NCBI GenBank assembly: GCA_947085285.1
Contig: CAMTVZ010000138.1
Span: 330 to 64,329 of the forward strand
Origin: an uncultured Ignavibacteriota bacterium
GTDB lineage: Bacteria > Bacteroidota > Ignavibacteria > UBA10030 > BY39
Length of the DNA stretch: 64,000 nt
Direction: 5' to 3'
A program made the translations under genes and the position numbers. Shown here piece after piece: positions 21,232-61,286 of the stretch (the first letter of the stretch is position 1; every line of letters begins with the position of its first letter). Under the pieces are notes generated by a model. The model had not been told where the DNA came from. It ran no database searches and saw nothing but the letters and a program-made list of their open reading frames with translations.

Positions 21232-21232
21232 T

Positions 21233-42804: not shown

Positions 42805-42831
42805 ATATTCTTTTTGTTTTTAAAACATATG

Positions 42832-42999: not shown

Positions 43000-43015
43000 G
43001 GGGGGGATAATGAAC
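43000..43015 (-). promoter_or_regulatory. G-tract motif copy 2 (plus strand GGGGGGGATAATGAAC), about 155 nt upstream of the flgB sigma-54 box.
   Basis: A G7 homopolymer inside the same motif. Confidence 0.4.
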
Positions 43016-43192
43016 AGGCAAGGAGTTTTTTTGCTAGTGAGAGGTATCGTCAAGCTAACACGGTGGTTGGGCAAGCTTAATATCCACAATTAGAGACCTC
43101 TTAAAAAAAATTAAATCTCTAATGAATTAATCATTTGGGTAGAACACGTGCGAAGTATCACATCGGTAGATAAACACCGATTATTATCAGTG

Positions 43193-44608: not shown

Positions 44609-45645
44609 ATATTATTCTTTTGTGAAAAAATTATACGTGTTATTAAGCCACCGTCGGGCGATTTTTCGACTTGCATTTTTGCATTATTGCACATCAGAAA
44701 ATCGGTAGTAAAGGGTTTGGTAGCTTCGCTTGATTTTATGAAATAGCCAACACTCATATTAAAATTTGCATTAAATTCTTCTATCGAAACGCCAGAATTT
44801 GAATCTTTAATAACAACAAAAATACTGTACGGTGGTAAGGCAGGTTTGGCGAATGATAATTCTAAAATTCCGCTCGTTACTGTAATTCGCGAATTTTCAG
44901 GGGAATAGTAAATTACTGTTTTCAATATATTTTTGAAAGCTTCTGTAATTTGTTTGGAATTAATTTTAATCGCTGGTAAATCTTCGTCTAAATGTAAATC
45001 AAGTTGTAGGTTCTTCTCTTTTATTGGAATAAGAATTGCTTGTATTGCTTCCATCATTAAACTATTTACATCATGGTCGGTTTGTGTATTATCGCCAAGG
45101 TGTATAAGGGATGCTATCCGTTCCAGAATGTTAGTAATTCTGTTGCTCGCCTTTATAGCAAAATTGATTTCGGCCCGATCTTTATCGTGTCCGGTTTGTT
45201 GAAGAAATTGCAAATTCATTATAATAATACCTAAGGGGTTGCGAATTTCGTGTACTATGCGAGCAGTAAAATTTGATAAATTAGAAAAAAATTGTTGAAA
45301 CGAATTTATCTTTTTTTTAAAATTTTCAGAAGATATTTCCTGAATGAATAACGCAACCTCGTTGTTGGCTAAACCACCGATGTGACTGACGATAATGTAA
45401 ATATCGAAAATGTTGTTATTTTTAGTTTTTAAATAATACTCGCCCGATTTAAAAGTTTTTGTGTCTACAGCCTTGCTGGCATCGGCATCTTCATAAATTG
45501 GAAATGTTTGTAAATTAAGAATCTCGATTTCCGAAAAACCAAATAATTGAAGAGCCGATTCGTTAATATCAACCACCCTTGCCTCATTCGTGTTAACTAT
45601 AATAACTGGATTTTTTATAGTTTTTATAAAATCAACTATGTTCAT
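44605..45645 (-). CDS. Cytoplasmic PAS-type sensor histidine kinase paired with the sigma-54 activator (FleS/FlgS-like).
   Basis: The H-box reads ARIVHEIRNPLGII. The HATPase D-box reads VIKDSNSGVS. There is no TM segment. It overlaps the regulator start by 4 nt. Confidence 0.8.
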   Translation of the reverse strand: MNIVDFIKTIKNPVIIVNTNEARVVDINESALQLFGFSEIEILNLQTFPIYEDADASKAVDTKTFKSGEYYLKTKNNNIFDIYIIVSHIGGLANNEVALFIQEISSENFKKKINSFQQFFSNLSNFTARIVHEIRNPLGIIIMNLQFLQQTGHDKDRAEINFAIKASNRITNILERIASLIHLGDNTQTDHDVNSLMMEAIQAILIPIKEKNLQLDLHLDEDLPAIKINSKQITEAFKNILKTVIYYSPENSRITVTSGILELSFAKPALPPYSIFVVIKDSNSGVSIEEFNANFNMSVGYFIKSSEATKPFTTDFLMCNNAKMQVEKSPDGGLITRIIFSQKNNI

Positions 45646-45683
45646 TAAATTATTAACAGGAAAATTTTAAATTATAATGATGG

Positions 45684-45712
45684 TTATTATATAAAAAATT
45701 TGGGTAATAAAC
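45684..45712 (-). promoter_or_regulatory. Possible sigma-70-type promoter for the kinase/sigma-54-activator operon.
   Basis: The minus strand reads TTGTTT-N17-TATAAT, about 40 nt upstream of the kinase ATG. A G-tract motif lies just 5' of the -35. Confidence 0.25.
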
Positions 45713-45716
45713 AACA

Positions 45717-45730
45717 GAGGGGGAAAATGA
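45717..45730 (-). promoter_or_regulatory. G-tract motif copy 4 (plus strand GGGGGAAAATGAAG), upstream of the kinase/sigma-54-activator operon.
   Basis: It lies 4 nt 5' of the putative -35. Confidence 0.35.
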
Positions 45731-45781
45731 AGCCCTTTTCGCTGAGAGCGAAATTTATTGATATAACTATGCCGTAGCGAA

Positions 45782-46045
45782 CTAAGAAGGTTCGTTTTTT
45801 AAATCTTTTAAAACCTTCTCTGCAATTTTTTCTAAAACTTCGTACTGATCATAAAACCCTTCTTTAAGTTTTTTTTCGATCTCTTCTAATTGTTTTACTT
45901 TTTGATCTTTTGCGAGAGCACGAGCTGCTTCCGATATGTTCACCTTGTCGGTGTCCGACGGCTTGGTATTTTCGGTCGGCTTCGTTTTCTTTAATTTCGG
46001 TATCTCGACCGGATATCCACTTTTATTTATTTTATTAATAGTCAT
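45782..46045 (-). CDS. flgM: Anti-sigma-28 factor FlgM.
   Basis: The 87 aa protein ends in ISEAARALAKDQ...KLKEGFYDQYEVLEKIAEKVLKD, which resembles the sigma-28-binding helices. Confidence 0.7.
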   Translation of the reverse strand: MTINKINKSGYPVEIPKLKKTKPTENTKPSDTDKVNISEAARALAKDQKVKQLEEIEKKLKEGFYDQYEVLEKIAEKVLKDLKNEPS

Positions 46046-46057
46046 AATAATCTCTTT

Positions 46058-46462
46058 TTATTTGTACGATGCAATTGCTTTTTGAATTGTAGCTTTTTTA
46101 ATTAATTCGATCAATTCGTTTTTTTTTGTGTCGAGCGTGTAAGATAACAATTCGTTACTGTTACGTAATTCTTCAAATAGGGGTAAAAATATTTCATTCA
46201 GTTTGTCTTTTACTTCTATGCTTGTAGTAAAATAATAAATTTTCTCTTTTAATAAAACTGCCCGATTTAATAACACTTCTCGTTTTTCTATCAGCTCGGT
46301 TGCTTTATCGTATTCCTCATTCGCAATACATTGTGTGAGGAAAGAAGTAATTGAGTTGATATTTTCGCAAATCTGCCTTTGTTCAACGATAAATTTTTCG
46401 ATGTTGCTGATCGCAGTTTTATATTCAAATGTATAACTCGTATTTATGTTACGATTTTTCAT
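46058..46462 (-). CDS. Putative flagellar chaperone (FlgN/FliT-like), all-helical, 134 aa.
   Basis: It sits between flaG and flgM. It has helical heptad character. No motif is decisive. Confidence 0.3.
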   Translation of the reverse strand: MKNRNINTSYTFEYKTAISNIEKFIVEQRQICENINSITSFLTQCIANEEYDKATELIEKREVLLNRAVLLKEKIYYFTTSIEVKDKLNEIFLPLFEELRNSNELLSYTLDTKKNELIELIKKATIQKAIASYK

Positions 46463-46784
46463 CGACCAGCAGTCCTATAAATTTTGCAATATTTTCAGAA
46501 ATCTTCCTCAATTCCTTGGGAGGGATTTCTTTTATTACTTCATTAGTTTCAGAATCTATCAATCTGATTATTACTTTTTTAGTTTTTTCGTCTATCGAGA
46601 AAGTTAAATTAATTTTATACTGACTGATTTTTTCGTTTATTATTTTTGTCAGTTCAATAATTTTTTCGACAGATAAATTATCTTCAGCTTTTTGTATTAT
46701 TCTACTTTTACGGCTAAGCCCCTTATCGTTCGTATCGACCACGCCCGATTTATTAATTTGCGATATGTTTTCGATAGATTTCAT
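46449..46784 (-). CDS. flaG: FlaG family protein.
   Basis: The C-terminus reads TFSIDEKTKKVIIRLIDSETNEVIKEIPPKELRKI. It is next to fliD. Confidence 0.6.
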   Translation of the reverse strand: MKSIENISQINKSGVVDTNDKGLSRKSRIIQKAEDNLSVEKIIELTKIINEKISQYKINLTFSIDEKTKKVIIRLIDSETNEVIKEIPPKELRKISENIAKFIGLLVDEKS

Positions 46785-46790
46785 AAAATA

Positions 46791-48218
46791 TTACCAACCT
46801 GCCATAATGTTTCGCACAAGTTGCTGTTGTTGAGTAATCATAGATAAAATATTTTGAATCTTATTTAGGTCGTTCCGAAAATTATTTACTTTTTTGTTAA
46901 TCTGTACTTCTGTCAATTTAATCCGGTTGTCGAGATTTTTGATTTGTGTATTAATACCATCGTTTGATTTATCGACAACGCCACCCGAACTTATAAAATT
47001 CTGCAATAAATCTTTCAACCGAACCGCAATTCCATTTGAAGAGTTAAAAAGATCAGTTACCTTATTGGGGTTATTTGTCAGAGCCTCATCTAAAGCTGAG
47101 CTATTGCTTATACTTAAAGTTCCATCTTTAGCAGCGGTTATTCCAATCTGTGATAGAGATCCGGGGTTTTCGGGGTTTAAATTAGTTACAAAACCCTCAA
47201 CAGTTGTTCTGAGTTTTAGTCGAAGATTAATAAAAACAGAATCGCCAGACAATATTTGTCGAACGCCAGTACTACCATCGACTGCAGTTTTAGCTTTAAT
47301 AAACTTTATTACACTGTTATATTCTTCTATAAATTTTTGAATTTTCAATTTTAGCTTTTCTGTGTCACGCATAACACTCAGGGTAATTGGAAGTTCGTTT
47401 TCGCTTTGAACACTTTTCAATTCAAACGTTAGCCCCGAAATTACGTCGTTTACCATATTTGAACTGCGAACTATATCAATACCATTTAATTTAAAACGTG
47501 CATCAAGTTCCGAGACTTGATTGTATAAATAGCCGCCGGCATTTCCGGAGGTTACCGTTCGTGAATTTAGTACCGACTGGCTCAATCCGATGCTACTTAA
47601 TAAACCTTCTCCCGTTTCATATAATGATATTGCATTTGTCGAACCTGTTTCTGTACTGTTCAATACTAGACGGCTCGTCGTGGATGTTACTGCAATAACC
47701 GAAGCTTTCAACTTTAAACCTAACCCATTAACAGCGGTAGAAATTTTTGTCAATACAGAATTATTGGCTTCTCCTTCAGACAAATTAACTGATATTTCTT
47801 TTTCTTGACCGTTAATTGAAACACTAAACAAGTGCGTGCCGGCGCCGGCAGTATCTACGATCGAATTACTGTCCCTTTCTATCGCTCCTGAAATTAGAGA
47901 ATCAGATTTTGCCAAACTGCTTACTGATAAACTATAACTTCCTAAAGCGTCGGCAGATGAAGCAGTAGCCGAAACTACATTAGTGTTTGAAGACGATACT
48001 TTATAGCCGATAAGATTCGTCGACGCTCCATCTACACTCATATCTTTAACCTGGTTAAAGAAGGAATTTAGCTTCATTTTCATTTCAGAAAGTACATTAA
48101 GGCGTACTTTCAATGTGGTCTTTCTATTTTCCAATGAAGTGATAGGTTTACGTAAGCTTAAGCGATACTTTTGAACTAATCCATCGATCGATGCCGACAA
48201 TGATGATACATCAGTCAT
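46791..48218 (-). CDS. fliD: Filament cap protein FliD.
   Basis: The N-terminus reads ASIDGLVQKYRLSLRKPITSLENRKTTLKVRLNVLSEMKMKLNSF. Length is 475 aa. The C-terminal helix is present. Confidence 0.85.
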   Translation of the reverse strand: MTDVSSLSASIDGLVQKYRLSLRKPITSLENRKTTLKVRLNVLSEMKMKLNSFFNQVKDMSVDGASTNLIGYKVSSSNTNVVSATASSADALGSYSLSVSSLAKSDSLISGAIERDSNSIVDTAGAGTHLFSVSINGQEKEISVNLSEGEANNSVLTKISTAVNGLGLKLKASVIAVTSTTSRLVLNSTETGSTNAISLYETGEGLLSSIGLSQSVLNSRTVTSGNAGGYLYNQVSELDARFKLNGIDIVRSSNMVNDVISGLTFELKSVQSENELPITLSVMRDTEKLKLKIQKFIEEYNSVIKFIKAKTAVDGSTGVRQILSGDSVFINLRLKLRTTVEGFVTNLNPENPGSLSQIGITAAKDGTLSISNSSALDEALTNNPNKVTDLFNSSNGIAVRLKDLLQNFISSGGVVDKSNDGINTQIKNLDNRIKLTEVQINKKVNNFRNDLNKIQNILSMITQQQQLVRNIMAGW

Positions 48219-49676: not shown

Positions 49677-49904
49677 TTTGTAATAATGCCCGCTCGCTTT
49701 CAGACTTCGGGCGGGGAGTATTACTATTTGATTAATAACATCCGTTTTGCTTGAACAAAGCGGTCGTTGGAATATTGTCAGTTCATCACAGAAAACTGAT
49801 AAATGTAAATTCCGCTCGCTACTTTAGAGTCTGATGCGTTAGTACCATTCCACTCAACCGAACGATTTCCCCGGAAGCATTTGCGATGTATTTCCGAATT
49901 CAAC

Positions 49905-51188
49905 TTACGGTTTAGTGGTAAAAGTAAATGTTTGTGAATATGTATAACCCAAATCGGAGGTCATCTCACGCATCCACTTAATGAACGTATTCGATGCAGC
50001 ATAATCAGTAGAAGGAATTGGTAAATACCGGTAAACCGACCAAGAATAAAGTGTATTTACGGGTAACCCCAATCCGTGTACTGAAAAATCGGGTATCTTT
50101 AAGTTTGAAGCTCTTGTGAAGATATAATATCTTGGGCTGTTAGCAACTGAAGAATACATTTGAACAATATTTACACCTTCGCCTGTACCTTGACTCCACG
50201 TAAATTCAGAATTATAATCTATATTGGAAGAACTATGAGGAGGTAACGCTAAACGTGGTGCGGACTCGAGCGTAACATTTACATTTGTTGACCCGGCGCT
50301 TATTCCTAATTTTGTGAAAGAAGTACCTATGGTGTTAGGTGTGCTGCTCATCGAAGCATCTGCCCGAATTCCGAATTGAACACCCGATATATTGGGAACA
50401 GCAAAATTAAAATTATTCGAAACGATTGGGGCATACTCGCTCCGCAAACCAATCTTGGCATTTTCGAATATAATAAAAAGGAAGCGTGAAGAAATCGAAT
50501 AACCTGCAGGAATATTTACAACACCAGTAATCGTTACATCGGGTGGGTCAACCACTTCAGTCGTTGAGAAATTTTGATTGCTATAACTTGCACCGTTTTG
50601 AACTGTAAGCGATTTTGAGGCATATCCGTCGAAGGTGGTTGGGTTACCCGTAATGTCAGTAGAAAACCTCAATAAGATTAATTTACCAATTAAAGTATTG
50701 GATGTATCAAACCAGCGGGCATTCAAAGTGTAAGCACCAGTTGTCGGGTCAGCTGTTGCTAAAGAATAGTTAGCGCCACTTACAAAGTAAATCCTGGTTG
50801 TTCTGCCCGATGCAGCAGGGGCTGTGCCAGTGATGGTTGCACTTTTCGATATAGACGGGAAAGAGAGATAGAGGAGTTTGGGGTCGGGACGATTCAAACC
50901 CTGATATATCATAGCAACTTTCCCCGTACTTACTACCACCGATATATCATACGGAACAGTTACGTTCGGTATTGAGAAAGTTCCGGCGGCGCTAGTAGTT
51001 ACAGCAGACTTACCGGGAATGATTACAGCAGCTCCGCTCACTGGTGATCCAAAGTAATCTTTTACAAAACCACTTACCGTGATCGGTCCAAGGGCTCCTT
51101 CTTCTTTTTCGCATCCAAAAAACATAAAACCAAGCAACAATGTTGCAATAAAAATAATAAATATATTTTTCATAATTATACTCCACAT
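49905..51188 (-). CDS. Secreted lipoprotein with carboxypeptidase-regulatory-like beta domains. Function unknown.
   Basis: A signal peptide with lipobox (LLLGFMFFGC) is present. The segment ITVSGFVKDYFGSPVSGAAVIIPG resembles a carboxypeptidase-regulatory-like beta domain. Confidence 0.6.
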   Translation of the reverse strand: MWSIIMKNIFIIFIATLLLGFMFFGCEKEEGALGPITVSGFVKDYFGSPVSGAAVIIPGKSAVTTSAAGTFSIPNVTVPYDISVVVSTGKVAMIYQGLNRPDPKLLYLSFPSISKSATITGTAPAASGRTTRIYFVSGANYSLATADPTTGAYTLNARWFDTSNTLIGKLILLRFSTDITGNPTTFDGYASKSLTVQNGASYSNQNFSTTEVVDPPDVTITGVVNIPAGYSISSRFLFIIFENAKIGLRSEYAPIVSNNFNFAVPNISGVQFGIRADASMSSTPNTIGTSFTKLGISAGSTNVNVTLESAPRLALPPHSSSNIDYNSEFTWSQGTGEGVNIVQMYSSVANSPRYYIFTRASNLKIPDFSVHGLGLPVNTLYSWSVYRYLPIPSTDYAASNTFIKWMREMTSDLGYTYSQTFTFTTKP

Positions 51189-51259: not shown

Positions 51260-51829
51260 TTAATCTGGATAAACTATTGGAGGTGGTTGTTTCTTCTCCT
51301 CTTTTTTAGTGAGAAGAAGTACTGCAACCACAGCCCCAACCACTGCAACACCGGCACCTACTATAACCCAGGTGTTCTCATACCACGCAGTATCTTTTTT
51401 TTGTTCATCGGCAGCTTGTGGTTCTTCTGGCTGTTGACTTCGTATTTTTTCTACTAAAGCTACATAAGTCGGTGTGTCTTTATCAGGGTTAGGTGTATAG
51501 GTGGGAACTAACTCTAATAGCTTTCTTATTGCATTTTCAGCCTGTTCCTGATAGTCTTTTCCAAGATATACTTTTGCAAGCAATTCGTGAGCACGTGCTC
51601 GTTCTTGCTTGGTTATGCTGCTCTCTTTCAAACAATTGTTCAGAATTGTTATCGCATCATCAAATAGTCCCTCGTAAAACTTTTGCTCAGCTTGCTTTAT
51701 TTTCTCATCACAACTACTCTGCGTTTGTGCCATTATCGGAGTGAGAGTCGGTAGCACAAAAGCAAATATAATAACTCCGATTATTCCAGCAGTAACTTTT
51801 CGATACCTGTACAACAACTTACCAATCAT
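51260..51829 (-). CDS. TPR-like membrane protein.
   Basis: An N-terminal TM segment and a C-terminal TM segment (WVIVGAGVAVVGAVVAVLLL) flank TPR-like helices (ELLAKVYLGKDYQEQAENAIRKLLELVP). Confidence 0.55.
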   Translation of the reverse strand: MIGKLLYRYRKVTAGIIGVIIFAFVLPTLTPIMAQTQSSCDEKIKQAEQKFYEGLFDDAITILNNCLKESSITKQERARAHELLAKVYLGKDYQEQAENAIRKLLELVPTYTPNPDKDTPTYVALVEKIRSQQPEEPQAADEQKKDTAWYENTWVIVGAGVAVVGAVVAVLLLTKKEEKKQPPPIVYPD

Positions 51830-51860: not shown

Positions 51861-54374
51861 TTACTTTTTCTTTAGTGAAAATTTTAAGGGTTGATCTAAA
51901 TCTTTTTCAAAATTTATATTCTTTACACCATCAACGAGTGTGTAACCATCCAAGCGAACTTCAATTTTGTGCAAACCACTCCTCACTTTAATTTGAGCCG
52001 GTGTTTGTTTGCCCTCGGATTTATCGTCCACAAATATTTCTGCACGTAGCGGGCTTCCTGCATCATCGAAAGCAGTAATTGTTAAGGCACACATTTTATC
52101 AAAGTCGGCTAATATTTCGAGTGATTCTTCGGCTTTAATATTTATTGATTTTTCCCAAGTTCCGTATTTTGGGTGGGTAATTTTTATTTTACGTGTTCCG
52201 GAAGGAACATCTACATTAACCGGAACATCTGTATCTGATTTTTTTAACTGGTCGTCTACGTAAATCGAACCGTAAGGTTTGGCACGGAGTTTCAACTTAC
52301 CTATCATCGGTACTAAATTCTTACTGATAGTATATGTTTGCTTTTGTAATATGTTGAGAGTTGTGTCGAAATCCTTAAATCCATCCTTTTGCATTTTAAA
52401 TCTATGTCTGCCCGATGCAACCTTTTGGTTCATAAGCGGTGTAACACCAATCTCTTTTCCATCCATAATTATGGGAACACCCACTGGCTGCGAAGTTATA
52501 TTAATAAATCCGGCTGGAGATAATTTGACATCGATGGTTACCGGTTTATTGCCGATTATTCGAACAACCTGTTCGTAATCTTCAAAGTCGGGTCCAGCAA
52601 TGATTTTAATTTTGTGATAACCAGGCTGAATGAGACTATCTCTGTATGGGGTTTGCCCAATTTCCATTTCACCAATAAATACTTTAGCCCCCGGCGGCTC
52701 CGAATTGATTATCAATCTTTCAACCATAGCAGCTGCGCCAGTAGGTGCAAGATTATATCGGAGGTTTTTATTTTCTCCCTGCTTTAAATCAATCTCTTCT
52801 GTTTTTTCTCCATAAATTGGATGGATTACAAGAATGCGATGTTTACCTATTGAACGTTCGATGCTCGCAAGTTGAAAAGGTGGAATTGTATCTTTATCAA
52901 TAACCACGATAGCATCTGGAGGCATTACTGAAATAGACAATATCCCTGATGGTATTAAATTAAAATTTAATTGATAGTGCTGCCCATTGGTGGTAACGAT
53001 AGAAGTTTCGGCTGCGAAGAAATCTTTCTTGTGAACTTTTATTAATAATTTACCCACATCAACGGTGAATTCTTCTAAGGGGGTGTTTTTTCCAGTTGGT
53101 GCGTCGTTTACTGTAACTACGGCTCCGGGGGGTTGGGTGAAAATTGAAATTGTAGTTTTATCGGGTGAAAAAACAAAATACCACAGACCGATTAATAAGG
53201 CTGCAATTCCGAATACTGCAACCCTAATAAACTTTTTAGGGCTTGATAAGAGGGATTCGATTTTTTTACCAAACCAAAAAATAATTGCAGTTGCTAATCC
53301 GGTAAGCAACGAACTTGCAACTTTTTCTTTAGTCTGCTTGGACATTTGGATCCCAACTCCTCGTTTAGGGGCTGACCTTGCAACTGTTTCTTGCCCTGAT
53401 GCTTTTACTCTTATTGTTGTACGTTTTTTTAGAATTTGTGGAATAACAACATTCCATCGAACATCTTTAACATTCGATTTAAAAGTAAGGATTGAAATAA
53501 TTGATTTTAAAAAGTTCTCAATTGAAGAGGGACGTTTGTGAGGGTCAGTCATCAGAGCATTTTCGAGGACTGAGGAAATTCCTGACCACGGCTCGCCTTC
53601 GTTGCGGAAGGAGAGGTCGTATCCTTCTAATAATCTGAATGTTAATGCAGCAATCGAGTAAATATCGGATTGTTCGTTAACCGAATCGCCGCGTTTGTCC
53701 TCGGGCGAATAGTAGCCTTGCTTGATTTGTATGGCTTCGTCGGAAGGTAGATTTTTAAACGGCACTCCAATGTTGGCAAGAGTAACTAATAAATTTCCCT
53801 CATCGTCTAAACTTAGTATGATGTTGCCGGGGGCTAAATCTCTGATCCAAATTCTTTGACTATGAGCGGCTGAAACTGCCTTTGCAACTTGGTTAATTAT
53901 TTTGATTGTGTCGTTGGGCGAGAGGCGGTTTTGTTTATCGAGCACTTCGGCTAATGAAACACCTTGTATTAAATCGGTAACAATATACGGGCGGGGCTCA
54001 TCGTCAACATATGTGGTACCGAAACGAATATTTTGAAGAAATAGATGTCCGGGAAAACGTTCTGACAGGTATTTTAACATTTCAGCTTTAAACTGAAATT
54101 GTTGTGAAACGTTCTCGTTGTAAATTAGCTTTTTGTGTAATACACGGATTGCTACTAATTTATTTTTTTCGGTATCGAATGCCTCGTATGTAGTGTTAAA
54201 ATCGCCCCTGACGAAAAACGAACGCAATTCGTAATTTCCGAAGTATCGCCGAGTTAAAAGATTGAATTCGTCGGTAGAAAGTTTAACCGTAACTTTTCGA
54301 CGTTTATAAAAAATTATTCCTGCCACTAAAACGATTAAAATTCCGAATATTAATATAACTATCCAGATATCCAA
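51861..54374 (-). CDS. Transmembrane Ser/Thr-kinase-like protein with four or five C-terminal PEGA repeats. It is probably a pseudokinase.
   Basis: The N-terminal TM segment precedes a kinase fold in which the catalytic motifs are altered: VAIK reads VAIRVL, HRDLKPxN reads IRDLAPGN, DFG reads NIG. PEGA-like repeats include PPGAVVTVNDAPTG, PPGAKVFIGEMEIGQTPY and SQPVGVPIIMDGKEIGVTPL. Confidence 0.75.
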   Translation of the reverse strand: MDIWIVILIFGILIVLVAGIIFYKRRKVTVKLSTDEFNLLTRRYFGNYELRSFFVRGDFNTTYEAFDTEKNKLVAIRVLHKKLIYNENVSQQFQFKAEMLKYLSERFPGHLFLQNIRFGTTYVDDEPRPYIVTDLIQGVSLAEVLDKQNRLSPNDTIKIINQVAKAVSAAHSQRIWIRDLAPGNIILSLDDEGNLLVTLANIGVPFKNLPSDEAIQIKQGYYSPEDKRGDSVNEQSDIYSIAALTFRLLEGYDLSFRNEGEPWSGISSVLENALMTDPHKRPSSIENFLKSIISILTFKSNVKDVRWNVVIPQILKKRTTIRVKASGQETVARSAPKRGVGIQMSKQTKEKVASSLLTGLATAIIFWFGKKIESLLSSPKKFIRVAVFGIAALLIGLWYFVFSPDKTTISIFTQPPGAVVTVNDAPTGKNTPLEEFTVDVGKLLIKVHKKDFFAAETSIVTTNGQHYQLNFNLIPSGILSISVMPPDAIVVIDKDTIPPFQLASIERSIGKHRILVIHPIYGEKTEEIDLKQGENKNLRYNLAPTGAAAMVERLIINSEPPGAKVFIGEMEIGQTPYRDSLIQPGYHKIKIIAGPDFEDYEQVVRIIGNKPVTIDVKLSPAGFINITSQPVGVPIIMDGKEIGVTPLMNQKVASGRHRFKMQKDGFKDFDTTLNILQKQTYTISKNLVPMIGKLKLRAKPYGSIYVDDQLKKSDTDVPVNVDVPSGTRKIKITHPKYGTWEKSINIKAEESLEILADFDKMCALTITAFDDAGSPLRAEIFVDDKSEGKQTPAQIKVRSGLHKIEVRLDGYTLVDGVKNINFEKDLDQPLKFSLKKK

Positions 54375-54449
54375 GATTTAAATTCTTTCTAATATTTTTT
54401 GAAAAGTTACATTGTAATTTAACATTTTTTAAGGTATTGTCAAATAAAA

Positions 54450-54884
54450 TTAGTACGACTTAGGACTCGATGATAAAGGTTCGATACAGGGTAAATTATC
54501 AACGATCCCCTCGAGGCTATGACTTTGCTGTCTTGCAACACAGTTATCGTAGTCGAACCATTCTAACCGAGAGCGGATTTCAGGATCTTTACCAGCTTCA
54601 ATCGCTTCTTCTATATCTTCCTTCAATTCTCTTACAAGGCGGCGGAAGTCTTCAAAATGCCGTCTTTCGTGGGCTACCACTTCTGCGGCTTCAGTATTGT
54701 TAAGCTCCTCACTGATTAAAATTCGTGTCAAAAATGAAACTGTCAGGATCTCATCCTGCAAACTAGCTTCCCACGTATAATCGAAACAACCTCTATCTTC
54801 ATCAGGCATTATGCTTTGAATCTCGCTTATGCTCACCTTTTCGGGTGAGGGGGCTGTTGTGTGTCCGCTAAAATGTACTTGCAT
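54450..54884 (-). CDS. Hypothetical acidic protein with an HExxH motif, possibly zincin-like (DUF4157-like).
   Basis: The sequence reads VVAHERRHFEDF. It lies downstream of the contractile-system genes. The family call is an inference only. Confidence 0.4.
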   Translation of the reverse strand: MQVHFSGHTTAPSPEKVSISEIQSIMPDEDRGCFDYTWEASLQDEILTVSFLTRILISEELNNTEAAEVVAHERRHFEDFRRLVRELKEDIEEAIEAGKDPEIRSRLEWFDYDNCVARQQSHSLEGIVDNLPCIEPLSSSPKSY

Positions 54885-55082
54885 GAATATAAGTTCTCAA
54901 TTTATTTTATAACAGGTCGACTTTCTTTTAGCGTATGTAGAATCGGCTGCGGTGTAAGCCATTCTTTAACTGGGAATTCTCCTTTGTCCTCGATGTTGAA
55001 TAACATTGATTATTGATGAGAATAGAACTGCACAAAATTTGCAAAAAGAAAATCGAGAATTTAAAAATATTTATTTTATGTT

Positions 55083-56681
55083 TTAACATGCCGGTGAGCG
55101 ACCATAGTGATCAGGATTGGTTATATTTGGAACAACTAAATTACCATTAGCATCCCGCAACTCCCGGCGTACTTCAATTCTCTTTCTTCGTCCTGTAAAA
55201 AGTTTTCTGTATCTTCGACCAGTGAAACTTTGGCGATAAATTACACTCCCATCACGCTGTCGCATCCGTTGTATTTCTCCAGCAGACCATGACCAATTAT
55301 CAAAATCAGTTCCACTAGCGTCTTCTTCATTTCCCCAACCTTCTCTATTCCAAGCCTCTTCAAGCTCTGGGAAAATGTTTCCGTCTTCATCAGGTCTTTC
55401 TTCATAATCAATATACCTATGTATAGAAAAGGTTTGTAAATTGCCGAGGGACCAATTCCATTCATCATAACGAGTTCGAAAAGTGTCATCAGAGTTTTCC
55501 CATCCTTCATCGTCCCAAGCATTCTGCAAATCTTGTAGAAAATTATGATTACGCTCTGGTCTATCGGCGTATCCTATATACATAGGAAGTGATTCAGTGT
55601 CATAACGCTTGCGATATTTTCTATCCCTTAACATTGTTCGCCATTGTTCATCTGTGGCAATATCTGGATATTTTTCTTGGAAACGTGCAATACAAGTTGC
55701 TTCATTCGGTTCAATTGTGCCGGGGACGTAGAAATAAAAGAATTCTATAAAATACTCTTGAGCAGTTACGTTCCCATTCCTACTCTCATATGAATACCAT
55801 TGAATATATTTAGGTGCATAAATAGTAGAACGACCCCCAAAAAGATTTCTTATTTCATCGAGTAATTCTTGGCTATTGCCGAGAGAGCATCCACGAATGA
55901 CTATAGTAGATTCATTATCGAGTTGTGTATCATCTGGTGCTACTAACCTTTCATCCTCAGCATTATCTCTAAGCATTTGAGGAGTTACATGGCGTGTTCT
56001 GGAATCTGCACGGAAGAGCTTAATTAACCACTCTGATTCATTACCATGACTTACAATATTCACTTGTCCCCATGTGCCGTATCCTAAACGAGCTGATTCA
56101 GTGTGAAGATATGTAAATATCTCTTCGACGCTTGAACGAGCAAATACCCCATCAGCGTTTATCCTCCAGTAATGGGAGGCGGCAGTAAAATAACCGCGAC
56201 TTCCGGTAATAAACGAAATAATGGGTCTATCTTGAACAAAATTACGCACAAAAGCGAGTGTCGCAGTACGAAAGCTTTTTCGACGCCCATCAATGCGTCC
56301 GTTTACTTCAAGTTGTATCTCAAAGATTCCCTGCTCTCGCTCATTACGAGCACCTGGAATTGGGAGTTCATAGACTGTATCTTCTGGTTCACCATCAATA
56401 TGTATACGTAATATTGGTGCACCTTCTGCGGCTCTTGCGCGACGTGAAATAGCACCAGTAAATTGCCCATCAACAATTTGACCTGTGAATTCTACAATAA
56501 AATCATCGCTACCTCCACCAGATTCGGTTACAGCTTCACTCCCTCTTCCCCAACGATCAACTTCTTTAAGAGTCAAAACAACATCACTTGCACTATCAGG
56601 TGAATCGAAAATAATTGAAAGAGTTTCCGATAAATTGTTGAGAACCCCGGGATAAAGTATAGCGTGAAATTCACTCATCAC
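55083..56681 (-). CDS. Hypothetical 532 aa protein with two tandem W/D/E-rich repeats and a basic C-terminal tail. It is a candidate injected cargo.
   Basis: The repeats are NAWDDEGWENSDDTFRTRYDEWNWSLGNLQ and EAWNREGWGNEEDASGTDFDNWSWSAGEIQ. Its composition is R/D/E/W-rich, unlike the K/I/N-rich neighbours. Its start overlaps the next gene. Confidence 0.5.
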   Translation of the reverse strand: MMSEFHAILYPGVLNNLSETLSIIFDSPDSASDVVLTLKEVDRWGRGSEAVTESGGGSDDFIVEFTGQIVDGQFTGAISRRARAAEGAPILRIHIDGEPEDTVYELPIPGARNEREQGIFEIQLEVNGRIDGRRKSFRTATLAFVRNFVQDRPIISFITGSRGYFTAASHYWRINADGVFARSSVEEIFTYLHTESARLGYGTWGQVNIVSHGNESEWLIKLFRADSRTRHVTPQMLRDNAEDERLVAPDDTQLDNESTIVIRGCSLGNSQELLDEIRNLFGGRSTIYAPKYIQWYSYESRNGNVTAQEYFIEFFYFYVPGTIEPNEATCIARFQEKYPDIATDEQWRTMLRDRKYRKRYDTESLPMYIGYADRPERNHNFLQDLQNAWDDEGWENSDDTFRTRYDEWNWSLGNLQTFSIHRYIDYEERPDEDGNIFPELEEAWNREGWGNEEDASGTDFDNWSWSAGEIQRMRQRDGSVIYRQSFTGRRYRKLFTGRRKRIEVRRELRDANGNLVVPNITNPDHYGRSPAC

Positions 56682-57123
56682 TTACATTCTCCCATCCTTT
56701 CTGATCAATGTCTCGAATCACTATTTCTTTGCCGCTTTCTTCATCGGTGCTAAGCTGGGTTACGTCTTCATAAGATTCTTCTTGAAATAGCAAATAGTCA
56801 GGTATTCTTATAAGACAACGTATAATATGGGTAGGCGTTGATGGGATAACAGTTGAAAAGCTTCCCTCAATATCAAGTCGATAGTCTCCTGGGGGAACAT
56901 TCTGACACTCGATTAAACCATCTCCATCAGTTCTTCCCTCCACAACACAATTGTTAGGGAGATGAATGCGATAAGATTTATTTGCAATGGGAACAGCCCC
57001 CGAATTACTCTTCAATAAAAGCGAAATATGACTTAACTTTGTCCTTAATATCAATGTATTATATGCATCGATATCATTAGTGCTGAGAGAAATATTTACT
57101 TCTGTATTCATACTAATACACAT
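56671..57123 (-). CDS. Hypothetical protein with a carboxypeptidase-regulatory-like (transthyretin-fold) domain.
   Basis: YRIHLPNNCVVEGRTDGDGLIECQNVPPGDYRLDIEG matches the domain. Confidence 0.45.
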   Translation of the reverse strand: MCISMNTEVNISLSTNDIDAYNTLILRTKLSHISLLLKSNSGAVPIANKSYRIHLPNNCVVEGRTDGDGLIECQNVPPGDYRLDIEGSFSTVIPSTPTHIIRCLIRIPDYLLFQEESYEDVTQLSTDEESGKEIVIRDIDQKGWENVSDE

Positions 57124-57132: not shown

Positions 57133-57795
57133 CTAACATCCATAAACTTCTTTTAATTTTGAACATGTTTTTTCATCCAATTGACCATTCGGCGTTAATC
57201 CGTTTTTTCTCTGAAATATCTTTATTGCTGCCTCTGTACGTGGACCTTTGATACCATCAATTGAACCACAGCGATATCCTAAATTTGTGAGTCTCGCTTG
57301 CACTCCTGTAATTTCTTCAATTGGATCAAGAGAGCTTATTTTTAATATCCATGTGTAATTATCACCTAACACATTTTGTTTATTCACGGTTAATTTACCT
57401 TCGGTGATATTCGAAGGAGCTTCGTTTTCAAGTAAGCCTTTATCATTTGTCGTACCATCGAAAGTTTCACTGCCTAACTGTAATTTGTACGACACATTTG
57501 CAAGTGGATTCCCATCTTCATCTTTAAGAATTATTCTCAAATATGTGTGTTGATTTTTAAATTTAATTTTTACTTTCTTCCCTGTATCGATGTTTTCGAC
57601 TTTTGATTTTTTATCTGGAATAACTACTTTGTCACCTGGGAAAATTATATTTGGATTTGGCCTCTTATTTTTTAAATCTTTATTATCTGGATGCTCATAA
57701 ATAGTTTTCCAATTTTTAAACTCATATTTTTTTGCAATACTCGCTAAACACTCCCCTTGTTTTACTATGTGTACTTTGCTCATGTATAGCTCCAA
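57133..57795 (-). CDS. LysM plus peptidoglycan-binding (PG_binding_1-like) protein, as found in phage-tail and contractile injection loci (gpX/Afp7-type).
   Basis: The N-terminal LysM reads HIVKQGECLASIAKKYEFKNWKTIYEHPDN...IFPGDKVVIP. The C-terminus reads ITGVQARLTNLGYRCGSIDGIKGPRTEAAIKIFQRKNGLTPNGQLD. Confidence 0.8.
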   Translation of the reverse strand: MELYMSKVHIVKQGECLASIAKKYEFKNWKTIYEHPDNKDLKNKRPNPNIIFPGDKVVIPDKKSKVENIDTGKKVKIKFKNQHTYLRIILKDEDGNPLANVSYKLQLGSETFDGTTNDKGLLENEAPSNITEGKLTVNKQNVLGDNYTWILKISSLDPIEEITGVQARLTNLGYRCGSIDGIKGPRTEAAIKIFQRKNGLTPNGQLDEKTCSKLKEVYGC

Positions 57796-58440
57796 TTATT
57801 TTATTTCCCATTCTCCGGAATCAATTTCCGGAAAAGTAATTTTACAAGTTCCAGGCTCAACACCTTCGAGTTTTATTTTACCTTTTGCATCAACAACACC
57901 TCTTTTTATAGACCCATCGGGCAATTCAATCTCGTACTTTTCACCTATCATCGGTTTTCCATCTTCATCTGTTACATCAACTTCAATCCAATCAGTTTTC
58001 TTTTTTTCTTCTTTCTTAGAAGATTTCTGTTCAGATTTTTTAGGAGGTGGAGATGAGGTTTTTTTCTCGCTTGATTTTATTTCCGGTTGAGGGGGAACAG
58101 CAAACGGCGGCATAATAACAGGTGGTGCACCCGGCATCACTTCACCTATCAAAACAGTTGGACATCCCACTACAATCGTCCCACCGTGTGCACAACTATC
58201 GCCCATTCGCGCAGCAGGTTTTCCACCAATCATCACACCAGTCGAACCTTTTACAATTACATCTGGCGGACCAACACACGTTGCCATATCGCCCATAACA
58301 GCGGCAGGCAAACCACCGATGAGTACATTAGGAACCCCAGGTCCAGTTATAGGACCACCAACATGTGGAATTGGTGGAACGCCCGGTGTTACCATCGGGC
58401 ATACGTGCATATCACTTATACGTGCGGCTGGTTGTCCCAT
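57796..58440 (-). CDS. PAAR-repeat spike-tip protein with a Pro/Lys-rich linker and a C-terminal domain of about 60 aa.
   Basis: Three PAAR-type repeats are present (GQPAARISD, GLPAAVMGD, GKPAARMGD) with the conserved Cys/His pattern. The C-terminal extension makes it 214 aa. Confidence 0.85.
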   Translation of the reverse strand: MGQPAARISDMHVCPMVTPGVPPIPHVGGPITGPGVPNVLIGGLPAAVMGDMATCVGPPDVIVKGSTGVMIGGKPAARMGDSCAHGGTIVVGCPTVLIGEVMPGAPPVIMPPFAVPPQPEIKSSEKKTSSPPPKKSEQKSSKKEEKKKTDWIEVDVTDEDGKPMIGEKYEIELPDGSIKRGVVDAKGKIKLEGVEPGTCKITFPEIDSGEWEIK

Positions 58441-58454: not shown

Positions 58455-59315
58455 TTAATTTTTTTCACCAAAAAGTGTATCAACATATTCATCATATTCA
58501 CTCTCAACAATACCCAATCGGTCTTTACCTAAAGAAGCGCGTCCCAAAACAAACCCACTGGTTTCTAATAAAATTTGAATTCGTGCGTGAAAATAAAACG
58601 GCTCGGCAAATTCTACAAGCCGGTACAATTTTTTACTTACACCTGCTTCTTCAGCCCAACCTGCTTCTTGAAGTTTTTCGAGTGTTCTTACATTTATCGG
58701 TCCGATTGTGATGTTGTAAAACTTCGGACGCGACTTGAATTTTTTTCCAAGTACAAAATCTTTCCCGATTGTTGAATGATTATCCTTCTTACCTAATTTA
58801 GATTGAAGTTCGTCCGGGATTGGTCGCTCCTGATATTCTAAATCCTTAACAACGACGGGGACAGGAAGCTGAGTTGAACACTCTAACATCGTGCGAACAA
58901 GTGTAGCAATTCCATCGGTATGTCCCCAGGTTTCGTGTGCATGAACATAATTTTTTAAAAATACTTCAGCTTGATCGTCAGTGAGAGATGAGATGAAATC
59001 TATGTACCATTCGGGACATAACGCTGAGGTATATTGGCGAAGATAATCGGGAATATTTTCGTGCAACGTCTCGAAAGTCTGCGATTGCTCGTCTCTATCA
59101 GCAAACAGACGAGGAAAAGATTGCAAAAGCGCATAACGTGAATGCTCCATGCTGTTCAAGCCCGCATCTTGTATGAGCCGTTCAATTATACGCAAAGCCT
59201 TTACGGCATTTGAAGTTCCGACGGATTCATCCTTATCGAGTAGTCCGATTGGCAGAAGGTCTTCAAGCGAAGCAATCTGAAGTGGAATTTCTATTTTTTC
59301 TATCTCATCCATCAT
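58455..59315 (-). CDS. Putative baseplate protein (TssG/gpI/Afp12-like).
   Basis: It is translationally coupled (ATGA) downstream of the TssF/gpJ-like gene. Position and size fit. I have no motif proof. Confidence 0.35.
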   Translation of the reverse strand: MMDEIEKIEIPLQIASLEDLLPIGLLDKDESVGTSNAVKALRIIERLIQDAGLNSMEHSRYALLQSFPRLFADRDEQSQTFETLHENIPDYLRQYTSALCPEWYIDFISSLTDDQAEVFLKNYVHAHETWGHTDGIATLVRTMLECSTQLPVPVVVKDLEYQERPIPDELQSKLGKKDNHSTIGKDFVLGKKFKSRPKFYNITIGPINVRTLEKLQEAGWAEEAGVSKKLYRLVEFAEPFYFHARIQILLETSGFVLGRASLGKDRLGIVESEYDEYVDTLFGEKN

Positions 59316-60823
59316 TCTTCCGCAGAAACAAGTTTTATTCTAATAAAATTACCATTAACTGTTCTGCTCTTTAAATATAACCCAAGCAGTCTTTCAAAGT
59401 AGCTTTTATCGGGTTCAGATAAGAGTGCACCGTCGTTAACTGGGACTGAAATTTCGGTGAACGGAGTTAAAAATCCTTTAACACGCCCGACTTTTTCTTC
59501 GAATGCAATATTGTTTGATTTAACTAAATCGTTTCGATGGCTAAATGGAGGATAACCAACGATAGCAGCGCGTAAATCATCTTTAGTTAGCCAGCGATGG
59601 CGGCTTGCAAGAAGCGACCGGAAATAATTCCAGATGTGTTCTTTATTATTCAGTGCCTCAATCCGATGGGTTGGAGTTAATGACTGTGCACTTTTTACTC
59701 TTTCATCTATTCCTTGATACAGTCCGAAGCTTCTTCCCGATGCAATGTTGATACAATCATCTCCTATATCGTACTGGCAATAGTGTACTTTCACTGTGCC
59801 CGAAGGCGGTGGCGAAAAAGCAAAAACAACTTCGTCCTTATGAATATCGACTGATGTAGTATATTGAAACGGATAACCCGGATCCAGAACTGTAGCAGCA
59901 TTCAAATATTCAATCGGCGGGTCTGAACCGAGGTCTGTAACTGAAGTAATAATTGTTTCCTTTGACTTATGGGCAGTAATCGGAATGTTATACCGAAATT
60001 GATCAACGGGCAGGGCAAGTGCTTCCATCTCTACCATATTCCAGGCTAGGAATGAATTGAGGACAAGCTTCTTTTCCAAATCTTGTGCGAACTCACCGAG
60101 TCCCGGAAAAGGAATCCATATCAAATCATCTTTTGATTTGCTTGATGAAGCCGCGATGAAGATATCGAAAGGAATTTTTATGAAGCGGGAATCATAAGGA
60201 GTAAGAAAGAAATCATCGACGATGTTGTAGTTGCCCGGATATTTAGTTCTAATAACTGACTTTTTATTATTCTCGAGAACTTTAAAACCTGCAGCTTGCG
60301 TAATGCGACAGCGAAGTCGTTCCACTAACAACGGATCAACATCGCCTGTGAATATACTTATTTCACCGTTTTCTATCTCTTGAAGATTAGAAGTGAAAAT
60401 GTTAAAGCCAAGCATCAAGTCGTCGCCATAGCTGTCAACCCGAACATCGTTCGTATTGGCAGGAACAATCCAGGTCGGATACTGAGGAGCGAATAAAACT
60501 TTTGTTCCTTCTTTATCTTGAACATTAAAATAATGAGGTTGCTCCAACCACACAGGCTGTGCGGTTTTAACTTCACGTAAAGTAGATTGCAGAACAACAT
60601 AAGCCGGACCCGGAAACATCTGTCCAAACAAATGACGGCGAAGCACTTCAAACAATCCGTCGGAAACCTGATCGCTACGCTGTGCATAGGTTGATAAAAG
60701 GAGTTGATCCTGTACTTCCCCCTGATACGCTTCAAGAGTTTGTAAGATTGTAGTGAGTATAGGATCTTTTATATCGCCTTTATACTGACTAATAAAACGA
60801 GATTTAAAATCAGTAAACGTCAT
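59312..60823 (-). CDS. Putative baseplate protein (TssF/baseplate-J/gp6-like).
   Basis: A 503 aa protein between the gp25-like gene and the TssG-like gene. This is the conserved order gp25-gp6-gp7 (TssE-F-G). Confidence 0.4.
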   Translation of the reverse strand: MTFTDFKSRFISQYKGDIKDPILTTILQTLEAYQGEVQDQLLLSTYAQRSDQVSDGLFEVLRRHLFGQMFPGPAYVVLQSTLREVKTAQPVWLEQPHYFNVQDKEGTKVLFAPQYPTWIVPANTNDVRVDSYGDDLMLGFNIFTSNLQEIENGEISIFTGDVDPLLVERLRCRITQAAGFKVLENNKKSVIRTKYPGNYNIVDDFFLTPYDSRFIKIPFDIFIAASSSKSKDDLIWIPFPGLGEFAQDLEKKLVLNSFLAWNMVEMEALALPVDQFRYNIPITAHKSKETIITSVTDLGSDPPIEYLNAATVLDPGYPFQYTTSVDIHKDEVVFAFSPPPSGTVKVHYCQYDIGDDCINIASGRSFGLYQGIDERVKSAQSLTPTHRIEALNNKEHIWNYFRSLLASRHRWLTKDDLRAAIVGYPPFSHRNDLVKSNNIAFEEKVGRVKGFLTPFTEISVPVNDGALLSEPDKSYFERLLGLYLKSRTVNGNFIRIKLVSAEE

Positions 60824-61286
60824 GTGTTTCCTCGATAATATTCCAAGGACCTATTGTTCCTGCTTTCAGTCCTTTTTCGCTTCTTGATATTTTAAATTTG
60901 TAAACATATTCTTTATTCTCGGTTCGGAATTTAATTCCATTTTCTTCCCGCTCATCGCCAATCAAGTTCACATCATAGATTTCTGCAATATCTCCAAACC
61001 AGTTATTAACTTCGTTTTTAATAATTTGTTCGAGCGACCTGCGTTTGTCTTCTTCCATAATATCGCAGAATCGGGCGCTCATTCCCATATTGTAGAATTG
61101 AACCCACATAGCACGGATACCGGGAGATGGTAATTTGAGATATTCGCCAGCACCTGATAAAACAAATAATCTAAGTCGCGAGCCGACAATATTCTCTTCA
61201 GTACTTGCCCGTTGGAAAGTACCAATCGGCGATAATGTTAATGGAATATGTAAAACTGCCATGTTAATTAATTTGTACCATTGCAC
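60810..61286 (-). CDS. gp25/TssE-like baseplate wedge protein.
   Basis: TEENIVGSRLRLFVLSGAGEYLKLPSPGIRAMW fits the GPW_gp25 signature (eeNI..lL.T..GER...P.fG). It is 158 aa and directly follows VgrG. Confidence 0.55.
   Translation of the reverse strand: MQWYKLINMAVLHIPLTLSPIGTFQRASTEENIVGSRLRLFVLSGAGEYLKLPSPGIRAMWVQFYNMGMSARFCDIMEEDKRRSLEQIIKNEVNNWFGDIAEIYDVNLIGDEREENGIKFRTENKEYVYKFKISRSEKGLKAGTIGPWNIIEETHDVY

Follow-up and report, generated by a model that had tools for sequence, protein, structure and literature searches.

A predicted pseudokinase with PEGA domains encoded beside type VI secretion genes in an uncultured Ignavibacteriota bacterium and its relatives

The window analysed here is a 64,000-nucleotide stretch of contig CAMTVZ010000138.1 (assembly GCA_947085285.1) from an uncultured Ignavibacteriota bacterium. 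Between type VI secretion system (T6SS) genes and genes for two putative envelope partners, its minus strand encodes a membrane protein that joins a Hanks-type kinase fold, predicted from its sequence to be catalytically dead, to an array of PEGA domains (Table 1). An identical 837-residue protein (P0001) is present in public data, and orthologs share both the start position and the hydrophobic N-terminus. All of the family sequences and loci described below come from metagenomic contigs.

Table 1. Positions of features in the window and, where a locus is named, in the contigs of relatives.
Feature	Position	Strand	Details
TssC sheath protein, 3' part	63320..64000	(-)	Runs off the window; Pfam PF17541, E 1.1e-12
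VgrG spike protein	61264..63021	(-)	Pfam Phage_base_V, E 1.6e-19; Phage_GPD, E 4.2e-10
Putative TssF (503 residues) and TssE (158 residues)	59312..61286	(-)	Named from position and size alone; no family match
TssG baseplate subunit	58455..59315	(-)	Pfam T6SS_TssG, E 7.7e-9; TIGR03347, E 7e-10, below cutoff
PAAR protein	57796..58440	(-)	Pfam PAAR_motif, E 1.1e-23
LysM and PG_binding_1 protein	57133..57795	(-)	220 residues; adjoins PAAR; Pfam
Stretch with orf144, orf532 and orf150	54450..57123	(-)	Lies between the PG-binding gene and the pseudokinase gene
orf144	54450..54884	(-)	
Sigma-70-like site	54416..54443	(-)	TTGACA, 16 nt, TAAATT, preceded by TG
Pseudokinase-PEGA gene	51861..54374	(-)	837 residues; TTG start; intact open reading frame
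Transmembrane helix 1 (TM1), residues 3-23	54306..54368	(-)	IWIVILIFGILIVLVAGIIFY; hydropathy 3.31; modelled helix 3-25
Family-specific juxtamembrane segment, residues 26-45	54240..54299	(-)	..VKLSTDEFNLL..F; modelled strand 29-32 and helix 34-42, packed on the N-lobe
Hanks-type kinase-like (pseudokinase) domain, residues 46-300	53475..54239	(-)	
Degenerate Gly-rich loop	54186..54215	(-)	FVRGDFNTTY; V55-R-G57-D-F-N-T-T against PknB G18-F-G-G-M-S-E-V
Beta3 strand	54138..54155	(-)	VAIRVL; ATP-anchoring Lys replaced by Arg77; R77 = PknB K40
AlphaC segment	54072..54101	(-)	QFQFKAEMLK; salt-bridge Glu replaced by Lys96; K96 = PknB E59
Catalytic loop	53823..53852	(-)	IWIRDLAPGN; I177-R178-D179 = PknB H136-R137-D138; A181 = K140; N184 = N143
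DFG equivalent	53760..53780	(-)	LANIGVP; metal-binding Asp replaced by Asn201; N201-I202-G203 = PknB D156-F157-G158
Basic linker with hydrophobic/amphipathic helix, residues 346-372	53259..53339	(-)	Helix modelled at low confidence
Transmembrane helix 2 (TM2), residues 383-403	53166..53228	(-)	Hydropathy 2.26; modelled helix 379-402
Six PEGA beta-sandwich domains	51867..53159	(-)	Residues 406-472, 475-541, 554-617, 620-686, 691-757 and 761-836; pLDDT about 85-93
Partner gene 1, TssQ-like	51260..51829	(-)	189 residues; signal peptide or TM helix, TPR-like helical domain, C-terminal TM anchor
Partner gene 2, predicted lipoprotein	49905..51188	(-)	427 residues; ..FMFFGC; N-terminal CarboxypepD_reg-like beta-sandwich
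Decayed C-terminal sorting-domain remnant of the type IX secretion system	49727..49942	(-)	Por_Secre_tail-like
Flagellar cluster	1..48218	(-)	
Second TPR/TM paralog in relatives	L002 12901-13470; L008 14688-15146; L010 14549-15103; L035 10001-10585		
T6SS cluster stretches carrying a pseudokinase gene	L016 1770-15218; L025 1757-15240; L007 10815-14389		

A degenerate kinase fold between two membrane helices

Pfam assigns a Pkinase domain to residues 56-293 (E 1.1e-17; 64.8 bits against a cutoff of 31.7) and finds PEGA (PF08308) above threshold in six separate stretches (E 2.3e-52, 175.2 bits); the remaining matches are to PK_Tyr_Ser-Thr and, weakly, to TcaA. The best sequence matches among solved structures are the kinase domains of Mycobacterium tuberculosis PknB, PknA and PknE (phmmer, E about 1e-16 to 1e-14), and AlphaFold, run on residues 1-340 with the family alignment, gave a model (pLDDT 90.2, pTM 0.86) whose nearest solved fold is PknB (Foldseek, E 1.7e-18). 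The score above the curated threshold and the bilobal fold of this confident model together identify a Hanks-type kinase fold (PF00069), as an earlier, sequence-only reading of the stretch had proposed. The full-length model (pLDDT 82.5) displays six beta-sandwich domains in agreement with the Pfam stretches, so that the PEGA repeats claimed in that reading are present, but number six rather than the four or more counted there.

The N-terminal transmembrane (TM) helix proposed in the same reading was borne out by its conservation among orthologs; TM1 is retained in every full-length family member and is absent from the two catalytically active relatives described below (P0024 and the L034 kinase). 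A second helix, TM2, had not been recognized in that reading, and it is on account of this helix that the PEGA array is assigned to the periplasm. Basic residues flank both helices (KRRK after TM1, KKIESLLSSPKKFIR before TM2), and the positive-inside rule predicts a topology in which the N-terminus lies outside, the kinase-like domain is cytoplasmic and the PEGA array is periplasmic. In the juxtamembrane segment that follows TM1, residues L32, D35, L39, L40 and F45 are invariant (alignment A2), and this motif is missing from the active relatives. The basic linker carries the conserved motifs ..TGL.TA...W.GKKIES.L.SPKK, and its modelled helix is probably located at the membrane interface.

The register of the catalytic motifs was tested with hhalign, in which a family profile of the kinase domain was set against one made from PknB and 97 canonical kinase domains (probability 100%, E 3.4e-49). 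Five hallmarks of catalytic competence, namely the beta3 Lys, the alphaC Glu, the HRDxKxxN loop, the DFG Asp and the GxGxxG loop, are lost or disrupted in the window protein, and G57 is the sole glycine remaining in the last of these. The sequence-only reading had proposed an arginine in place of the VAIK lysine, IRDLAPGN in place of HRDLKPxN, an asparagine in place of the DFG aspartate and a degenerate glycine-rich loop; all four assignments hold in the profile alignment, which places R77 opposite PknB K40 and N201 opposite PknB D156. No mis-registration was found, and the beta3 Lys, the catalytic-loop Lys and the DFG Asp are replaced while D179 is kept. Pairwise phmmer and MAFFT alignments set the DFG motif four residues upstream, at V197-T-L199. 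This register was rejected in favor of N201-I-G203, because three observations support NIG as the DFG equivalent: the profile alignment, a modelled beta8 strand that ends at residue 199, and a position 201 that switches between N and D across the family. Replacement of the beta3 Lys by Arg, of the catalytic-loop Lys by Ala and of the DFG Asp by Asn are classic kinase-dead substitutions.

The pseudokinase family is small and sharply bounded. A word-indexed search recovered 23 relatives (about 23 clusters at 90% identity) with 28-85% identity and 247-1635 bits, after which scores drop to 187 bits for P0024, a canonical kinase with PEGA repeats, and then to 77 bits or less for generic kinases. 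An exhaustive search of 1.84 billion representatives returned only 24 proteins at E ≤1e-30; for about 14 of them (about 14 clusters at the 50% identity level) the match spans residues 5-411 from end to end. Close relatives of the window locus belong to the Ignavibacteria, which GTDB ranks as a class within Bacteroidota. The full catalytic set is found in none of the family members. The beta3 position holds R in 21 of 23 family sequences (alignment A1), G in P0015 and K only in the distant P0128; Lys96 is invariant (alignment A2); and the catalytic-loop Lys is kept nowhere, with A, S, T or P in its place. The HRD Asp varies between D, E (in many relatives) and A, and at position 201 the PEGA-bearing clade of Ignavibacteria has N, several others have D and the L025 member has A. 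This last protein, the most divergent in the family, which is T6SS-linked and was found independently through its TssC neighbor, has lost all three catalytic residues. Within the glycine-rich loop, R56, G57, D58, N60 and T62 are near-invariant across the family.

Compared with close orthologs, the kinase-like domain has a ratio of nonsynonymous to synonymous substitution rates (dN/dS) of 0.05-0.06 and the PEGA region one of 0.07-0.11. In deeper comparisons identity is 56-67% in the kinase-like domain, the best-conserved part of the protein, and 41-47% in the PEGA region. Given this conservation, with a dN/dS of about 0.05, the protein is a maintained pseudokinase, kept by selection; the intact reading frame, the low dN/dS and the conserved family rule out a decaying pseudogene.

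Conserved T6SS linkage and the genes of the module

The sequence-only reading had placed the gene between a flagellin locus and an injection-system module. That module is a T6SS (Table 1) and its link to the pseudokinase gene is conserved, whereas the flagellin adjacency is seen in the window only. Full-length TssC orthologs of 474-483 residues occur in loci L016, L025, L027 and L030, and the order VgrG, a gene of about 158 residues, a gene of about 505 residues and TssG is kept in all of the T6SS loci examined. Overall, 13 of 15 distinct pseudokinase loci are T6SS-linked, and these span 36-60% GC and two ectodomain architectures. The recurring arrangement, in which TssG is followed by PAAR, variable cargo and then the pseudokinase gene, is seen in L008-L011 and L035, where the pseudokinase is 81-86% identical to that of the window; in L003/L004 (45% identity) the pseudokinase gene directly follows TssG. 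The same order recurs in L031 (52%), L032 (46%), L030 (44%), L005/L006 (50%, over the kinase-like domain) and L007 (38%). L007 has the order TssF, TssG, PAAR, cargo, pseudokinase, a 130-residue gene, TssK and a 739-residue P-loop protein, and since the pseudokinase gene is placed between tssG and tssK it lies inside the core T6SS set. A protein search with the TssC fragment gave three matches, on contigs of 3 kb or less, and a DNA scan of metagenomes was then used; this yielded two loci long enough downstream, both of which carry a pseudokinase gene. One, L016, is contiguous with L005, and in the other, L025, a pseudokinase gene with 25% identity comes right behind PAAR. The link of the family to the T6SS is probably functional.

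The conserved T6SS cluster, unusual in its composition, comprises TssK, P726, ClpV, a 176-residue gene, Hcp (PF17642), a 139-residue gene, TssC (PF17541), VgrG, TssE, TssF and TssG, and contains no predicted TM protein and no match to TssJLM or TssNOPQR. P726, a soluble P-loop protein of roughly 726 residues and no assigned family, is always encoded after TssK. In L031 (10001-13205) the copy of the pseudokinase, P0017, has only 569 residues, and no gene is called over the next 1.5 kb or so, where the PEGA repeats would be expected to go on; either the copy is disrupted or this is an artefact of assembly or of a frameshift.

Partner gene 1 is separated from the pseudokinase gene by 31 nt and is co-located with it in every PEGA-type locus that extends that far. 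Its product has two hydrophobic segments by hydropathy, and in 8 of 8 orthologs the best NCBIfam match is TssQ_fam (NF038027), with E-values of 1e-6 to 1.6e-4 and 22-29 bits, all eight scores lying below the curated cutoff of 65 bits; at the level of sequence this resemblance to TssQ is suggestive. The product of partner gene 2 matches CarboxypepD_reg below cutoff (Pfam, E 1.2e-5). Like partner gene 1, this gene is syntenic in every PEGA-type locus of sufficient length, with 40-86% identity in L002-4, L008 and L010-13, and the lipobox Cys is conserved among orthologs.

In the second architecture the pseudokinase has about 735 residues, lacks PEGA repeats and is followed by genes for small lipoproteins (130-158 residues), a PEGA+TPR protein and a TolB-like/outer-membrane beta-barrel protein. 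These lipoproteins are unrelated to the 189-residue partner, and hhalign detected no match between the 427-residue lipoprotein and the 530-, 647- and 479-residue proteins of this architecture; the TPR/TM partner matches the 530-residue PEGA+TPR protein weakly (probability 57%, E 1e-4). Domain shuffling between the two architectures was considered and dropped, as the downstream genes are unrelated or matched only weakly.

In most Ignavibacteria loci there are two tandem copies of partner gene 1, paralogs of each other, with a lipoprotein or envelope-protein gene behind each; the window has only the first of these two-gene sets. The extended module of the relatives runs from the pseudokinase through the TPR/TM partner, the lipoprotein and the second TPR/TM paralog to genes of roughly 395 and roughly 608 residues, the latter encoding in L035 a FlgD_ig/Por_Secre_tail protein. 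A tblastn search with the last 72 residues of this 608-residue protein detected the sorting-domain remnant of the window, which has an in-frame stop (…ASGIYIYQFSVMN-stop-QYSNDRFVQAKRMLLIK-stop). A deletion of about 3 kb appears to have removed the distal module genes from the window strain, bringing a flagellin gene beside the module; no flagellin match was found in any fetched locus. The long flagellar cluster beyond it (FlgI, FlgK, FlhA, FlhF, FlgE, FliK, FliI, FliF, FliD and flagellin) is interspersed with sensor histidine kinases and a sigma-54 activator.

On the upstream side, the LysM/PG_binding_1 protein has homologs at the same position in L008 (57%) and L016 (43%). It has neither a signal peptide nor a TM helix; possible roles are those of a cargo or adaptor directed at peptidoglycan, or of an accessory for anchoring to the cell wall. 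The three genes that follow, orf144, orf532 and orf150, gave no Pfam or NCBIfam match; orf532 and orf150 have no counterpart in L008-L011, with one short match of 57 residues to orf150 in L032, and the stretch likely consists of T6SS cargo and immunity genes. By contrast, orf144 may belong to the pseudokinase module rather than to the cargo, as homologs with 61-76% identity lie directly upstream of the pseudokinase gene in L008-L011. L035 has a 142-residue gene at this position, and the genes between orf144 and PAAR vary. The sigma-70-like site, in the 75-nt gap 5' of the pseudokinase start, could be an internal promoter of the three-gene module; a promoter and terminator scan of the region counted 26 sites against 26.3 in shuffled sequence, showing no excess.

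Active relatives and the role of the pseudokinase

The nearest protein outside the family, P0024, carries canonical AIKK, HRDIKPSN and DFG motifs, and its PEGA repeats are 35% identical to those of the pseudokinase over residues 574-837. Its locus (L033) combines T6SS genes (DUF2169, DUF3540 and PAAR-like) with genes for another Ser/Thr kinase, an FHA protein and a phosphatase of the PP2C type, and directly 3' of P0024 lies a homolog of the 189-residue partner (hhalign probability 99.8%, E 2e-30). Downstream of P0024, L033 also carries five tandem paralogs of 248-350 residues (15117-20231), each of which shares 36-43% identity, over a stretch of about 110 residues, with the product of the extended module's roughly 395-residue gene. 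A second active relative was reached through the partner homolog P0290: locus L034 encodes a canonical kinase-PEGA protein of 589 residues (GKGGMG, VALK, HRDVKPGN and DFG), neighbored by an FHA protein and TssK-TssL-TssM-TagF, and is a classical subtype i T6SS (T6SS-i). The kinase-PEGA and TPR/TM genes together make up an accessory unit of the T6SS that accompanies at least two of its types. By tblastn against the available contig sequence, no homolog of the FHA, PP2C, TssL or TssM proteins was found in the 64-kb window or in any pseudokinase locus, and the neighbor lists of the pseudokinase loci contain no FHA or PP2C Pfam match. L003/L004 have, about 4 kb downstream and on the opposite strand, a Response_reg-SpoIIE gene, whose product we take to be a PP2C-type phosphatase. 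Judged against the two active loci, the kinase-PEGA unit is intact where phospho-signaling partners are present and degenerate where they are absent.

With a confidence a little above even, we read the pseudokinase as a catalytically dead descendant of a PpkA-like kinase that serves as a trans-envelope scaffold in, or accessory to, the T6SS. A PpkA-like ancestry is suggested because intact relatives with the same PEGA ectodomain and TPR/TM partner adjoin FHA and PP2C genes in T6SS clusters, and a non-catalytic sensor or assembly platform because catalytic residues are lost from a gene that travels with T6SS genes. The role of a signaling scaffold put forward in the sequence-only reading likewise gains support, at the level of sequence, from substitutions conserved across the family, from strong purifying selection and from the contrast with catalytically intact relatives. 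The protein would cross the inner membrane twice, with TM1 and TM2 tethering both ends of the cytoplasmic kinase fold so that the kinase-like domain is held against the inner leaflet, and the six PEGA domains, roughly 430 residues in all, would project into the periplasm. Together with the TssQ-like TPR/TM protein and the lipoprotein it would form an envelope module that is part of, or accessory to, the T6SS cluster. In its descent from a PpkA-like T6SS sensor kinase, the phosphorylation partners would have been lost, the catalytic residues replaced and the extra N-terminal TM helix gained, pinning the N-lobe to the membrane. The periplasmic PEGA array and the two partners would sense or bridge the envelope, and the pseudokinase domain, as a platform for docking or allostery in the cytoplasm, would use protein contacts to promote or position the assembly of the T6SS.

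Several points weigh against this reading. The window protein still has D179 of the HRD motif and N184 of the catalytic loop, and it also retains an SPE motif and a strongly conserved, if non-glycine, loop; the distant P0128 keeps the beta3 Lys and the DFG Asp, having lost the alphaC Glu, the catalytic-loop Lys and the Gly-loop. Some proteins labelled as pseudokinases bind nucleotide or catalyze reactions by non-canonical routes. Within 8-10 kb, no T6SS genes are seen in L002/L013 and L012, which are close relatives of each other. The genomes of the pseudokinase loci could have FHA, PP2C or membrane-complex genes at other places, the evolutionary scenario draws on two active-kinase loci only (L033 and L034), and the sub-cutoff similarity to TssQ could reflect generic TPR-like helices.

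A less probable but still serious reading is that the pseudokinase module is itself the membrane complex, or the cytoplasmic hub, of a T6SS class without TssJLM or TssNOPQR. The module would take over baseplate docking from TssN and the role of a beta-sandwich array in the periplasm from TssP, and the lipoprotein would substitute for TssR or TssJ. Consistent with this, the conserved cluster lacks any predicted TM protein and any match to TssJ/L/M or TssN/O/P/R, which leaves the pseudokinase and its downstream partners as the only conserved membrane proteins. Partner gene 1 is TssQ-like, if below cutoff; the non-PEGA architecture adds PEGA+TPR and TolB-like/outer-membrane beta-barrel proteins in a manner that resembles a trans-envelope assembly; and the L007 gene, between tssG and tssK, occupies the position of tssN in Bacteroidota (PMC10781749). 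It is possible, if doubtful, that Ignavibacteria and several other uncultured lineages have a distinct T6SS class, in which a pseudokinase recruited from phosphorylation sensing became, with a TssQ-like protein and a lipoprotein, an envelope-spanning anchor and baseplate-docking hub; two unrelated machines, this T6SS and the secretion system of type VIIb (T7SSb), would then have converged on a pseudokinase as core membrane scaffold. Against this, the kinase-PEGA and TPR/TM pair adjoins a complete TssK-TssL-TssM set in L034, and because it coexists with these genes there the pair would be ancestrally an accessory rather than a membrane complex. The T6SS genes of Bacteroidota are, moreover, often split over several loci (PMC10781749), so that complex genes may lie off-contig, and the downstream partners differ between the two architectures.

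We regard it as improbable that the protein is an atypical active enzyme that binds nucleotide and carries out non-canonical phosphorylation or some other chemistry, in the manner of SelO or SidJ. The retention of D179 and N184, the near-invariance of R56-G57-D58-x-N60-T-T62 and of K96, which suggests a conserved pocket, the Asp at position 201 in part of the family and the beta3 Lys of P0128 would all fit such an activity. However, the loss of the beta3 Lys to Arg, of the DFG Asp to Asn and of the catalytic-loop Lys are each of a standard inactivating kind and are joined by a charge reversal at the alphaC Glu; the HRD Asp itself varies among family members; the L025 member has the same architecture and T6SS context in spite of having lost all three catalytic residues; and no FHA or PP2C partner was found nearby. 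Very improbable is a general envelope or cell-wall sensor unrelated to the T6SS and merely hitch-hiking beside it: PEGA-bearing Ser/Thr kinases are common envelope sensors and two loci are without nearby T6SS genes, but the linkage holds from 85% to 25% identity, across 36-60% GC, both architectures and varied intervening cargo, and was recovered again in the TssC-seeded search.

Comparison with known systems

Among the known systems closest to the proposed scaffold is PpkA (TagE), the kinase of the T6SS threonine-phosphorylation pathway in Pseudomonas, Serratia and Agrobacterium, which like the pseudokinase is encoded in a T6SS cluster. The pseudokinase differs from it in the replaced catalytic Lys, alphaC Glu, catalytic-loop Lys, DFG Asp and Gly-loop, in the extra N-terminal TM helix and in an ectodomain made of PEGA rather than vWA-like domains. 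No FHA or PP2C gene was found in the pseudokinase locus, within the contig sequence available, and the host T6SS is Bacteroidota-like (PF17541 TssC, and PF17642 Hcp in L016) rather than a T6SS-i. By analogy, the layout of the module may be seen as mirroring PpkA-TagR-TagQ. A 2026 catalogue of T6SS accessory factors lists the active TagE/PpkA of Pseudomonadota as its sole kinase, and a 2025 review describes seven bacterial pseudokinase families (ActPs1-3, DLHK, GLW, CP1 and DYD), none of them linked to T6SS, Bacteroidota or PEGA (PMC12599244). Set against the text of that review, the present family shows no match to the descriptions of the seven; its beta3 strand reads VAIR, not the poly-Leu/Trp LLLL/W of GLW. 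No T6SS-linked pseudokinase is described in the literature that we searched (pseudokinases and T6SS, PEGA kinases, T6SS of Ignavibacteria), and what appears new is a probable pseudokinase derivative of a T6SS sensor kinase with a conserved T6SS link and module.

Among pseudokinases, EssB/YukC offers a precedent; this membrane protein of the T7SSb cannot bind ATP and organizes or scaffolds the secretion system (PMC9600267; reviewed in PMC12599244). Like the protein described here, it is membrane-anchored, with a degenerate cytoplasmic kinase fold, a TM helix and an extracytoplasmic domain, and is encoded in a secretion cluster (PDB 6Z0F). It differs in that the pseudokinase has no YukC/EssB Pfam match and stands in a T6SS rather than a T7SSb context. 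Receptor kinases of the PknB/Stk1 type are further removed, being active, bearing PASTA rather than PEGA domains, lacking an N-terminal TM helix and acting in cell-wall growth.

The TssN/Q/O/P/R complex of the Bacteroidota subtype iii T6SS (PMC10781749) shares with the module a related host group and T6SS type and a common logic, in which an inner-membrane protein that has its hub in the cytoplasm is combined with beta-sandwich domains in the periplasm and a lipoprotein; the partner resembles TssQ, if below cutoff, and in L007 the pseudokinase gene stands at the tssN position. TssN, however, has five TM helices and an EccD-like domain (PMC10781749), in contrast to the two TM helices and kinase fold of the pseudokinase; TssP carries PKD-like domains in place of PEGA; and sequence comparison turned up no match to TssN, O, P or R. 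There is a modest chance that the pseudokinase marks a new type of T6SS membrane complex. It may anchor a T6SS in which no membrane complex can be recognized, a possibility that bears on the origin of the envelope complexes of contractile injection systems.

The active PEGA kinases, P0024 of L033 and the 589-residue kinase of L034, have the same PEGA ectodomain, TPR/TM partner and T6SS context as the pseudokinase, and are set apart by canonical GxGxxG, VAIK, HRD and DFG motifs, by the lack of TM1 and the juxtamembrane motif, and by an adjacent FHA gene, accompanied in L033 by PP2C. Bacterial pseudokinases have barely been studied, EssB/YukC being the one well-characterized structural example. 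Taken together, the family and its relatives form a natural before-and-after series, with active PEGA kinases beside FHA and PP2C genes on one side and dead ones without them, held by a second membrane tether, on the other, and this series makes the conversion of an enzyme into a scaffold directly testable.

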